DNA of 64,000 nt from an uncultured Candidatus Binatia bacterium. Its GTDB lineage: Bacteria > Desulfobacterota > Binatia > HRBIN30 > CADEER01. Positions 2,708 through 4,468 of this stretch are shown piece after piece. The DNA is taken from the NCBI GenBank assembly GCA_964475125.1, contig CAYYWP010000002.1:2036-66035 (forward strand), given 5' to 3'. How positions within the stretch are numbered: the stretch's first letter is position 1; each line of letters starts with the position of its first letter. The notes beneath the pieces are model-generated. The model ran no database searches. It had not been told where the DNA came from and worked only from the letters and a program-made list of their open reading frames with translations. The translations under genes were made by a program, and so were the position numbers.

Positions 2708-4468
2708 ATGAAGGCTGGTGTGGAGACCAAACGGGTCAGTCGCAGGGCAACTGTTTCGCCGGTGTTTCTGCTCCTCCTCGCTCCTGCGATCGTCTTTGGC
2801 GGACCGCAAACGGAGACGAGGGTCACCACCACGACCTACCTGCGCAACGACGACGGTGCGCCGACCGCGATGATCGTCCAGGTCGACGATCAGCCGGCGG
2901 TGACCACCTACTTCACCTGGGACAACTTCGAGCCGAACGTCGCTGATCCGACCACCGGCACGGTCTCCGCCGGAAATGGCAATCTCCTCGGCTTCGGGCC
3001 GACGCCGGGCGGAGGCTACACCACCCAGCTCTCTTTCGACCAACGCGACCGCATCACCGCGGCGAGCGTGTCCGGCTCGACGAGTGTCGCCTATGCGTAC
3101 GACGCCGGGAGCAGCCTGGCCGGCGCCGAGCTCGCGTCGGGCGACCAGATGCAGTTCTTCTACAACACGGACGACATCCAGCTCGCGACCAACCTCTACC
3201 AGCCGTCGACCGGCACCTGGTCGAGCTCTCTCGACGACACGACGTACCTCAGCAACGGCGTCGAACAGGTGCGCCTGATGCCGCGCAAGGACGTCGCCGG
3301 TGAATACGACGACGCGGCGCAGAGCTTCACTCCGATCCAGTACGAGCCATACGGCTCGGCAATGACGCCGGCGGCGCCGACCTCGGCCTACGACATGACG
3401 CAGAACCCGTTTCGCTACGCCGGCGAATTCAACGATCCGGTGTGGGACGGCTACTATCTTCGCCACCGCTGGTACCTGGCCGCGGCCGAGACCTTCGTCT
3501 CGCGCGACCCTGCGGACCTCGTGAGACGCTACGGTTACGCCGCCGGCAATCCGGTCGTCGATACCGATCCGAGCGGCCTGCGAGCATCCTCCTTCAGCCG
3601 CTTCGTCAACCGCACCTTGCTGCGCCCCCTCACCACGGGTGTCGTCGGAGACTTCGCCCCGCTCTTCCTCGGCAGCGAGATCACGGTTCTCGAGATCGCC
3701 GCCAATCCGCGCGGATTCTGGCATCAGATCCGCACCAACCAGCAGGGCATCGACCTCTTCCTCGCCGCCTCGGTCGCCTCCGAGCTGGTCTTCGCCGGCG
3801 CGGACTGGGTCGAGCGCCCGATCGGCTTCCGCACTAAGGTCGGCGTCGGAACGGCCCTTGGCGTGACGCAGTCGGCCGTCGCGGGAGTCACCCGCCGCGG
3901 CTTCAACTTCAAGCGGTTCGGTCTGGGTCTGGAGTACTCGGCCAACGCGGTCCTGAACACGCGCTACTTCGACGAGAAGAACCGCTTCGATGCGCTGATG
4001 TCGTCGCGCGAGGTCAGCCACTACGTCGAGGAAGAGTTCAACAAGCCCGAGGTCCGCAACGTCAGCCTCACGGCCTACCCGAATCGACCGAGCGGGCCAA
4101 TCACGGCGTGGTGGGCACGTGTCCGCGGCACGCCGCAGGACATGTACGACGTCTCCATCACGCGCGACGAGTTCAGCCGGTACTGGCTGCAGATCTCGGG
4201 CGACCAAGAGTCGGCTTTCGGCGACTATGACCCGACGCGCCCGGCACGCGAGCAGATCAAGGCCACCGCGGCGTCCTCGGGGTTCAATCTCGACAAGAGC
4301 CGCTACATACCCGCCGACAGCGTGCGCGAGCTCGATGACGCCGCCATCGAGCGGCGCGCACCGTTCGTCGAAGCGCGCCGGCCGCCGGTGCTGCGCTATT
4401 TCGGCCGAGCCACCCTGTTCACCCTCACTCGCATCCGCGGCTGGATCAGCCTCCTCCATTACAATTGA
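2708..4468 (+). CDS. secreted RHS repeat-associated core domain protein with a about 300-aa C-terminal variable (toxin-like) domain
   Basis: Signal peptide MKAGVETKRVSRRATVSPVFLLLLAPAIVFGG. A few YD-type repeats (SVAYAYDAGSSLAG). RHS core signature YEPYGS...NPFRYAGEFNDPVWDGYYLRHRWYLAAAETFVSRDPADLVRRYGYAAGNPVVDTDPSGL (DPxGL end of the core). The C-terminal domain has hydrophobic segments (FLAASVASELVFAGADW, VGVGTALGVTQSAVAGV) and no known toxin motif. The N-terminal 270 aa are paralogous to 13904-15733. Confidence 0.8.
   Translation: MKAGVETKRVSRRATVSPVFLLLLAPAIVFGGPQTETRVTTTTYLRNDDGAPTAMIVQVDDQPAVTTYFTWDNFEPNVADPTTGTVSAGNGNLLGFGPTPGGGYTTQLSFDQRDRITAASVSGSTSVAYAYDAGSSLAGAELASGDQMQFFYNTDDIQLATNLYQPSTGTWSSSLDDTTYLSNGVEQVRLMPRKDVAGEYDDAAQSFTPIQYEPYGSAMTPAAPTSAYDMTQNPFRYAGEFNDPVWDGYYLRHRWYLAAAETFVSRDPADLVRRYGYAAGNPVVDTDPSGLRASSFSRFVNRTLLRPLTTGVVGDFAPLFLGSEITVLEIAANPRGFWHQIRTNQQGIDLFLAASVASELVFAGADWVERPIGFRTKVGVGTALGVTQSAVAGVTRRGFNFKRFGLGLEYSANAVLNTRYFDEKNRFDALMSSREVSHYVEEEFNKPEVRNVSLTAYPNRPSGPITAWWARVRGTPQDMYDVSITRDEFSRYWLQISGDQESAFGDYDPTRPAREQIKATAASSGFNLDKSRYIPADSVRELDDAAIERRAPFVEARRPPVLRYFGRATLFTLTRIRGWISLLHYN

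Follow-up and report, generated by a model that had tools for sequence, protein, structure and literature searches.

Short RHS-core proteins with a conserved predicted hydrolase tail in an uncultured Candidatus Binatia bacterium, and their possible place in a split Rhs cocoon

Rhs and Tc toxins are usually pictured as self-contained cocoons, or as cocoons divided by a single B/C split, with a hypervariable cargo and, in the antibacterial versions, an immunity gene. Tc toxin loci carry several C paralogs each, and to our knowledge they contain no immunity genes. In these toxins, the cocoon is built from TcB together with TcC, and an aspartyl protease processes the C-terminal extension of TcC (PMC8765631). 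Among type VI secretion system (T6SS) effectors of the Rhs type, Tse5 possesses a shell that chaperones its membrane-inserting cargo (PMC10684867). Teneurins, in turn, have an extracellular YD-shell scaffold, a toxin-like domain located outside the shell, and no immunity protein (PMC8765631). In this work, we describe a gene cluster located at 2.7-16.8 kb of a 64,000-nucleotide (nt) stretch of DNA, referred to here as the window, from an uncultured Candidatus Binatia bacterium (assembly GCA_964475125.1, contig CAYYWP010000002.1). The cluster encodes two short proteins with an RHS-associated core (W1 and W2), a large protein made of YD repeats (the YD giant), a large Gly-rich lipoprotein (the Gly-rich giant) and a convergently transcribed lipoprotein.

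This locus departs from the usual picture by a small exported protein that carries both core and cargo, a separate shell with a putative sorting tag, a conserved cargo of predicted hydrolase type, and no immunity gene even in arrays of at least nine copies. W1 and W2 are paralogs within a family of Sec-exported proteins of ~600 amino acids (aa) that has not been described before. Their C-terminal tails (CT1 and CT2) represent one conserved two-part cargo, in which a helical part of ~90-130 aa is followed by a predicted hydrolase domain of ~180 aa. By analogy with the relation of TcC to TcB, the short proteins could be detachable core-plus-cargo subunits of a split Rhs cocoon with a putative toxin function, a proposal for which we see the case as evenly balanced. 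In the literature, we found no description of this tail family, of Rhs systems in Binatia, or of a core-less shell whose partner is a short RHS-core protein exported by Sec, and no papers on Binatota together with RHS or on MYXO-CTERM together with YD repeats.

The short RHS-core proteins and their shared tail

W1 and W2 share the same layout: a Sec-type signal peptide, ~250 aa of YD repeats, the RHS-associated core, and a tail of ~300 aa. An earlier note on this DNA, made by a model from the letters alone, had placed an RHS core before a DPSGL motif in both proteins, and this holds. The TIGR03696 model (Rhs_assc_core; curated cutoff 32.5 bits) matches W1 with 50.0 bits (E 3.1e-13) and W2 with 57.7 bits (aa 211-291, E 1.3e-15); both matches end at aa 291, and DPSGL occupies aa 287-291 in each protein. 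The motifs quoted in that note, IAANPRGFWHQI and IIAHPAAYWHEI, were found at aa 330-341 of both proteins. Its tail length of about 300 aa was right (295 and 318 aa), whereas its start at 3517 lies 17 codons too early. Both reading frames are real genes. In the window, whose GC content is 65-73%, genes were distinguished from shadow open reading frames (ORFs) by the GC content of third codon positions (GC3), which reaches 0.87-0.88 in W1 and W2. The 586-aa (W1), 609-aa (W2), and 1577-aa (YD giant) products are already present, in identical form, in a public protein collection.

The core of W1 and W2 aligns with solved Rhs proteins in their core and cleavage region. Across 37 family members, residues R254, D267, D287, P288, and G290 do not vary. 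D267 and D287 align with PDP and DPLGW, two segments of RhsA (chain 7q97), a protein in which cleavage requires both corresponding aspartates (PMC8765631). The core therefore keeps both aspartates of the Rhs aspartyl autoprotease, and cleavage behind DPSGL is predicted. The two aspartates are 20 residues apart rather than 23, and the residue that follows DPxG, canonically Leu in Rhs proteins, varies across the family (L, Y, M, R, K). Given this spacing and this variability, the autoprotease may behave differently from the canonical one. A large YD shell in cis is absent from W1 and W2, as just ~250 aa precede the core and the shell-sized YD protein is the product of a separate gene.

It had been supposed that the two tails have no more than a short stretch in common and are otherwise unrelated modules of polymorphic toxins. 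The comparison contradicts this. The BLASTP alignment of W1 with W2 (44% identity) begins at aa 47 and reaches aa 419/424, thereby extending 130 aa past DPSGL. A profile of W1 sub-clade tails (alignment A3, 5 sequences) matches a profile of W2-type tails (alignment A2, 28 sequences) with a probability of 99.8% (E 3.8e-30) over CT1 residues 4-179, or ~180 aa; in the last ~115 aa of CT1, similarity to CT2-type tails is not significant. Throughout the family, the ~300-aa tail is one conserved architecture that occurs solely behind this short RHS core.

The 43 full-length relatives of W1 measure 551-709 aa, two truncated sequences excepted, and their MAFFT alignment is conserved across the entire post-DPxG region. 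The tail itself is 267-330 aa long, with a median mass of 34 kDa. The family is rare: a profile search of 1.84 billion proteins yielded 123 clusters at 50% identity, mostly from metagenome-assembled genomes (MAGs) labelled Binatia or Myxococcota, with some labelled delta-, alpha-, or gammaproteobacteria. In that collection, the tail was found behind this short core, in forms fused to the YD protein, or in gene fragments, and behind no other delivery domain; apparent stand-alone tails were dismissed as gene fragments, being short matches that start at DPxG. When paralogs are compared, identity is 44-57% in the N-terminal parts and drops to 23-39% in the tails; such faster divergence of the tails is as expected for diversifying effectors. 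The close homologs of CT2 (P0001 and P0002) are 67-70% identical to it. A word-based homolog search with CT1 alone gave no match, and neither CT1 nor CT2 matches a Pfam or NCBIfam model; for CT1, CT2, P0001, and P0002, the Pfam result is empty even at E <= 10. A Tc-like constraint on cargo charge was considered and discarded, the isoelectric points being inconsistent (5.2-9.9).

This conservation also bears on the idea that W1 and W2 are vestigial, functionless orphan C-terminal fragments of rhs genes left by recombination. The proteins are indeed short for Rhs proteins, and some paralogs in long arrays are frameshifted. Against the idea stand their own signal peptides, their constant length of ~600 aa, a GC3 that is strongly that of coding DNA, and N-terminal residues invariant across MAGs labelled Binatia, Myxococcota, and delta-, alpha-, and gammaproteobacteria. 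We rejected it on the grounds of conservation and regard it as extremely improbable.

The predicted hydrolase domain, its inactivated copy and the helical part

The earlier note had seen no catalytic motif in the tails. W2, however, carries a His...Asn-Cys pair that is invariant in its family (28 sequences): R91, P181, H192, N285, and C286 (R382, P472, H483, N576, and C577 in W2 numbering) are the residues, and the only ones, that are invariant in A2. The AlphaFold2 model of CT2 has a mean predicted local distance difference test score (pLDDT) of 78.6; averaged over ten-residue blocks, the score is 47-62 in the first ~80 residues and 78-96, mostly above 80, between residues ~90 and ~310. In this model, a strand begins at His192, and the last helix has Cys286 at its N-terminus. 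A His that precedes a Cys placed at a helix N-terminus is a feature of permuted NlpC/P60-type hydrolases, which is present in W2 and absent from W1.

Comparisons with named families point in the same direction at low significance. The Pfam family matched by the largest number of A2 members is PF05903 (PPPDE), with 3 of the 28, all below threshold (best E 0.005), and two members match PF05608 (RTE1 family) weakly. In an hhalign comparison with DeSI, whose sequence was confirmed against PDB entries 3ebq and 2wp7, the motif Y..F.NNC falls in register with the catalytic YNLFEHNC (E 0.013 over 25 columns). The top match in the structure comparison was a T6SS effector, and lower down came YiiX and the Bacillus cereus C92 peptidase 3kw0. 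The Foldseek check that the earlier note had proposed, run with the CT2 model against the PDB, returned nothing at E <= 0.001; the tail profile found nothing among PDB sequences, and no member reached the gathering score of any Pfam family. C97 (PPPDE), C92, and LRAT are circularly permuted members of the NlpC/P60-like cluster (PMC10318531). It is well supported, at the level of the superfamily rather than of a named family, that the W2-type tail domain is a predicted permuted papain-like Cys hydrolase.

In a census of 208 distinct copies of the domain, both His and Cys are kept in 129, whereas 9 carry His/Ser and 3 His/Thr; the His is lost from about 10, and 38 span neither catalytic position. 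Set against about 155 copies, the dyad is retained in those 129. The copies in which Ser or, in a few cases, Thr takes the place of the catalytic Cys while the His is kept belong to a sub-clade (P0027, P0033, P0036, P0062, P0080, P0083, and others) that could represent either a nucleophile switch or a second route of inactivation.

The clade of W1 (W1, P0004, P0005, P0006, P0008, and L009) has preserved, besides the helical part, the domain's first strand. At the His site it has MYDVS where W2 has YHEGV, and at the Cys site GRATLF instead of NNCQQN. The AlphaFold2 model of CT1 has a mean pLDDT of only 48; its residues ~140-240 reach 70-85, and there the order of helices and strands is the same as in CT2. 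We read CT1 as a pseudoenzyme derivative of the CT2-type domain, presumably also over its last ~115 aa.

In front of the hydrolase lie the hydrophobic helices that the earlier note had reported after DPSGL, a claim that stands. Two moderately hydrophobic segments are present, with Kyte-Doolittle means over 19 aa (1.26-1.55) that stay below the classical transmembrane threshold of 1.6. Segment 1 is conserved across the family, a Glu of segment 2 is near-invariant in A2, and in CT2 the segments are modelled as helices with pLDDT 47-62. The helical part is the sole tail element present in every member, including lineages in which low-complexity tails replace the hydrolase, and since it is kept even there, a membrane-related role remains plausible. 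Several permuted relatives (PLAAT, and the RTE1 family PF05608) are described as membrane-associated.

The earlier note had gone further and proposed two unrelated polymorphic pore-forming modules, with immunity absent or encoded elsewhere. The tails do sit downstream of an intact RHS core without an adjacent immunity gene, the two hydrophobic segments are conserved, the helical part persists in members that have no hydrolase domain, and Rhs-delivered pore formers such as Tse5 are known. Nevertheless, the tails are homologous over ~180 aa, their architecture is fixed and found only behind this core, and the helices combine a hydropathy below the transmembrane threshold with a conserved acidic residue each and with low model confidence. 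The larger part of the tail is, by prediction, an enzyme whose His/Cys pair is invariant. No sequence similarity between the Tse5 tail and the CT region was seen, the match to Tse5 being limited to the Rhs part. Altogether, we consider the pore-former model improbable.

Partner proteins, natural fusions and the absence of immunity genes

A giant YD protein had been noted next to W1. A YD gene does follow W1, and the stretch consists of two genes, those of the YD giant and, in a different frame, of the Gly-rich giant (Table 1). The YD giant matches the RHS_repeat and YD_repeat models alone, with no match to TIGR03696. Its homologs, 42-74% identical, adjoin genes of the short family in 13 other loci, and homologs of the Gly-rich giant, 37-61% identical, occur in most of those 13. 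In nearly every locus that is sufficiently long, both giants are co-located with 1 to at least 9 short paralogs. The MAGs that contain the cluster are mostly labelled Candidatus Binatia, delta proteobacterium, or Myxococcota.

At its C-terminus, the YD giant has a PT-rich linker and then the motif [GS]-C-x-[IV]; about 10 residues further on comes a hydrophobic helix, which is followed by an Arg run. The MYXO-CTERM model TIGR03901 scores this end at 18.7 bits (cutoff 20), and the end with Cys, helix, and Arg run is common to six orthologs (in L003, L007, L011, L013, L014, and L019). Judged by its sequence, the tail may be a lineage-specific variant of the MYXO-CTERM sorting signal. In locus L005 the ortholog ends instead in dockerin-like DxNxDGxxxxDE repeats, and in L017 the sorting tail is absent.

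The Gly-rich giant, which could be a third component of the system, has a lipobox (LVSGC), PT-rich linkers, and Gly-rich blocks. It matches no Pfam family, and a PDB search gave two matches at chance level (E 0.21 and 0.36). Along its gene lie a duplicated Cys-rich module (9465-9548 and 9606-9689) and a Thr/Pro linker with an 18-nt period (9728-10057), and the protein also has two long blocks of poly-Gly and a middle rich in beta structure. The end of the YD giant (8956-9022) and the start of the Gly-rich giant (9384-9450) have a linker motif in common, TPTEFVPGP[ND]xTxTPTP, with 73% identity between the repeats at the DNA level; both proteins could be modified or recognised at this motif.

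The link between the YD giant and the short proteins is closest in natural fusions. A single ORF of 2289 aa in L025 (a Binatia MAG) or of 2109 aa in P0110 contains, in this order, the YD giant, a conserved linker of ~90 aa, the short RHS-core part, and the tail. Identity between these two ORFs is 42% over their whole length, linker included, and we accepted them as genuine fusions because the linker is conserved. It reads VRVRPWP...RV.I.G...DL..LD...RLG...DRDG..D...F, lies at ~4800-5100 in L025 and at about aa 1440-1530 in P0110, and is absent from the split versions. A third candidate, P0054 (2119 aa), was set aside, as it has a sorting tail and the next gene's signal peptide in mid-sequence and is probably two abutting genes read through. 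The fusions in L025 and P0110 show a shell and a core-plus-cargo part that appear to function as one unit.

That no immunity gene adjoins W1 or W2 was confirmed. The stop codon of W1 is separated by 19 nt from the start of the YD giant, whose ATG is preceded, 6 nt upstream, by a GGAG motif; the gap between the Gly-rich gene and W2 is 15 nt, and 83 nt lie between the stop codons of W2 and the convergent gene. No coding small ORF is found in the 19-nt and 83-nt gaps, and the same holds across the family loci. Two ORFs behind W2 were rejected as candidates: 15730-16179 is non-coding (GC3 0.56), and 15773-16000 is a probable shadow whose third codon positions coincide with those of the convergent gene.

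The surroundings of the short genes in relatives gave the same answer. Tandem arrays of the short gene have 3-4 copies in L003, L007, and L008, and no genes are interleaved in the arrays; over 26 adjacent paralog pairs, the median estimated gap is 11 nt, and the three gaps longer than 600 nt all come after frameshifted copies. The largest array, of at least 15 tandem paralogs, spans L020 (9 copies) and L022 (6) on contig CAWDED010000023.1 of an Alphaproteobacteria-labelled MAG; several of its copies are frameshifted, and one YD giant and one Gly-rich giant adjoin it.

The convergent lipoprotein was also considered. Its ortholog in L001 (1054-1515) is 72% identical and occupies the same convergent position after the W2 ortholog, whereas none of the 24 other family loci that were examined (L002-L026) has a homolog. 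As its ortholog stands beside a W2 ortholog in L001 alone, it was rejected as a general immunity partner. It has a weak match to Peptidase_A4 (eqolisin-like, E 0.01). Given the uninterrupted arrays, their short gaps, and the restriction of this lipoprotein to L001, the lack of immunity genes beside family genes is real and family-wide.

These results weigh on the possibility that W1 and W2 are classical interbacterial Rhs toxins, with immunity encoded elsewhere in the genome or by the convergent lipoprotein. RHS-fused papain-like peptidase toxins have been catalogued, often without a known immunity protein (PMC3482391), and the convergent lipoprotein is conserved beside the W2 ortholog in L001. 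Its absence from the other 24 loci, whose downstream neighbours differ, and the 26 paralog pairs with nothing interleaved are unlike toxin-immunity cassettes; moreover, there is no PAAR or VgrG in the cluster proteins, and no component of T6SS or contact-dependent inhibition (CDI) systems in the cluster and the ten downstream proteins scanned. We find a classical toxin quite improbable.

The cluster comprises five real genes (Table 1). The whole block is flanked by 253-nt direct repeats that lie 14,692 nt apart from start to start, and a 44-nt core of the repeat (2202-2245) is present exactly twice in the 64-kb window, once per copy. An Rfam search with the repeat matched no family. The repeats look like the footprint of a single-crossover insertion or duplication, and for this reason the cluster may be a recently acquired island. 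The ten proteins encoded downstream (17241-38814) belong by appearance to ordinary metabolism; they include hydantoinase A and B, methylmalonyl-CoA mutase, acyl-CoA ligases and dehydrogenase, a thiolase, a glycosyltransferase of the PMT family, and the heavy chain of a methylamine dehydrogenase (37633-38814).

Table 1. Features of the gene cluster and its flanks, with positions in the window
Feature	Position	Strand	Details
W1	2708-4468	+	586 aa; GC3 0.87; Sec-signal short RHS-core protein; tail predicted catalytically dead
W1 RHS-associated core	3341-3580	+	aa 212-291; Asp267 at 3506-3508; DPSGL at 3566-3580, with Asp287
CT1 (tail of W1)	3581-4465	+	295 aa; corrected extent
CT1 hydrophobic segment 1	3638-3709	+	aa 311-334, GVVGDFAPLFLGSEITVLEIAANP; Kyte-Doolittle 19-aa mean <=1.37
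CT1 hydrophobic segment 2	3746-3802	+	aa 347-365, GIDLFLAASVASELVFAGA; Kyte-Doolittle mean 1.55; FLA...E motif present
CT1 hydrolase-domain remnant (putative)	4049-4465	+	aa 448-586; His and Cys replaced
YD giant	4488-9221	+	1577 aa; YD repeats, without RHS core
YD giant sorting-signal-like C-terminus	9060-9218	+	GDGCAI, hydrophobic helix, then RRAAKRRR
Gly-rich giant lipoprotein	9245-13888	+	1547 aa; frame differs from that of the YD giant
W2	13904-15733	+	609 aa; GC3 0.88; Sec-signal short RHS-core protein; predicted hydrolase tail intact; DPSGL at 14762-14776
CT2 (tail of W2)	14777-15730	+	318 aa; helical part and predicted hydrolase domain
CT2 hydrophobic segments	14843-14998	+	aa 314-338 and 347-365; Kyte-Doolittle means 1.26-1.38
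CT2 predicted permuted papain-like Cys-hydrolase domain	15263-15730	+	His483 at 15350-15352; Asn576-Cys577 at 15629-15634
Convergent lipoprotein gene	15817-16752	-	GC3 0.86; probable start MIGKHRS at 16752
253-nt direct repeat, left copy	2118-2370	.	97% identical to right copy
253-nt direct repeat, right copy	16810-17062	.	97% identical to left copy

A putative split cocoon and its relation to known systems

In the split cocoon that we propose, the short protein, once exported by Sec, would close the YD shell, and the aspartyl protease would cut after DPSGL. The YD shell would then chaperone the partly hydrophobic cargo up to its delivery; at the target, the helical part would associate with the membrane, and the Cys hydrolase would cleave an amide or ester substrate, which might be a lipid, peptidoglycan, or an isopeptide. 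W1 would be a non-catalytic variant with a structural role or one that acts on membranes only. The universal lack of immunity genes suggests that the target is absent from the producer (a non-self target, for example a eukaryote) or that encapsulation provides enough self-protection. The median cargo of 34 kDa is about twice the size of T6SS Rhs cargos (~15-16 kDa), and this larger cargo fits the larger shell protein.

A more specific version is possible, though tentative: a surface-anchored, Sec-exported split Rhs system composed of the YD shell, the Gly-rich lipoprotein, and interchangeable cassettes with a membrane-targeted PPPDE/LRAT-like hydrolase. As the cassettes are never accompanied by an immunity gene, the targets of this system would be non-self, for instance eukaryotic grazers or prey. 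If true, it would amount to a Tc-like ABC toxin made of different parts.

Several observations weigh against a split toxin cocoon. The binding of the short protein to the YD giant is putative, proposed from gene context and fusions; each protein has a separate signal peptide, and a sorting tail of its own ends the YD giant. The N-terminal part of the short proteins, at ~250 aa, compares with ~700 aa in TcC, and with a variable residue after DPxG, cleavage is not assured. The helical region has low pLDDT and sub-threshold hydropathy, and W1 is missing the catalytic residues. SpvB, TcA-type domains, and secretion machinery were not detected in the cluster and the ten scanned downstream proteins, and a Sec-exported toxin without an immunity gene would be unusual for a bacterial target.

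Another reading is a surface structure that is not a weapon. Here, a teneurin-like YD scaffold would be held by the sorting tail and the Gly-rich lipoprotein, and the short proteins would serve as plugs or adaptors; the helical part would anchor in the cell's own envelope, and the Cys hydrolase would mature or remodel self components, with no need for immunity. All components being Sec-exported, lipidated, or sorting-tagged is consistent with such a structure, as are the absence of immunity genes throughout the family loci, the fixed architecture and tail size, the lack of secretion or injection machinery in the cluster and the ten downstream proteins, and the tolerance of catalytically dead members. 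Teneurins have an uncleaved plug of the YD shell (PMC8765631), and permuted NlpC/P60-type enzymes include many housekeeping lipid and peptide amidases (PMC10318531). On the other side, the aspartates of the autoprotease are invariant and point to cargo release, the tandem arrays (up to 9 copies per locus, and ~15 over two loci of one contig) with their fast-evolving tails look more like effector diversification, and the top structural match is a T6SS effector. A surface structure with a self-directed maturation enzyme is the main rival to our proposal; we treat it as a serious alternative, albeit an unlikely one.

If the split-cocoon reading is true, it would broaden the known modes of loading and exchanging Rhs shells and would offer an initial way into the function of large surface proteins from little-known soil lineages, mostly MAGs labelled Binatia or Myxococcota. 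The tail would add a new enzyme family together with a natural pseudoenzyme partner, W1. Even if that reading fails, annotations of the type "RHS repeat-associated core" in these proteins do not denote classical polymorphic toxins: the proteins have the RHS core and its aspartates, and they lack three features that define such toxins, namely a shell on the same polypeptide, tail polymorphism, and an immunity gene downstream.

Each of the known systems shares some of these features. Like teneurins, the cluster has a YD shell as a possible extracellular scaffold and no immunity protein; teneurins, however, are single polypeptides whose core is not an active protease, whereas here the genes are split and the aspartates invariant. 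With the permuted NlpC/P60-type hydrolases, namely PPPDE/DeSI (Peptidase C97), LRAT/PLAAT, C92, CLN5, and Vibrio cholerae TseH, the predicted domain shares a His before the Cys and an Asn-Cys at a helix N-terminus. It differs from them by extra strands and helices, by the ~130-aa helical region in front, and, in W1, by the loss of the dyad.

The Rhs effectors of T6SS (RhsA, Rhs1/Tre23, Tse5, and Tse15) have a core that aligns with that of W1 and W2, including the two Asp and DPxG, and a cargo that follows the cleavage motif. In contrast to them, there is no link here to PAAR, prePAAR, or VgrG, the shell is a separate polypeptide, the cargo is larger, no immunity gene is present, and the tail is not polymorphic. 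The Tc BC subcomplex is a two-gene Rhs cocoon, such as we propose here. As in TcC, the short protein carries the RHS core with its aspartyl protease and then the cargo (~30 kDa in TcC), although its N-terminal part of ~250 aa is short next to that of TcC (~100 kDa). SpvB, beta-propeller, and TcA domains were not detected in the YD giant or the Gly-rich giant; every component here has a Sec signal or a lipobox, the shell protein has a predicted sorting tail, and the cargo is conserved rather than hypervariable. The resemblance to TcB and TcC would thus be one of logic: a shell encoded by one gene, to be completed by the core and cargo of another.

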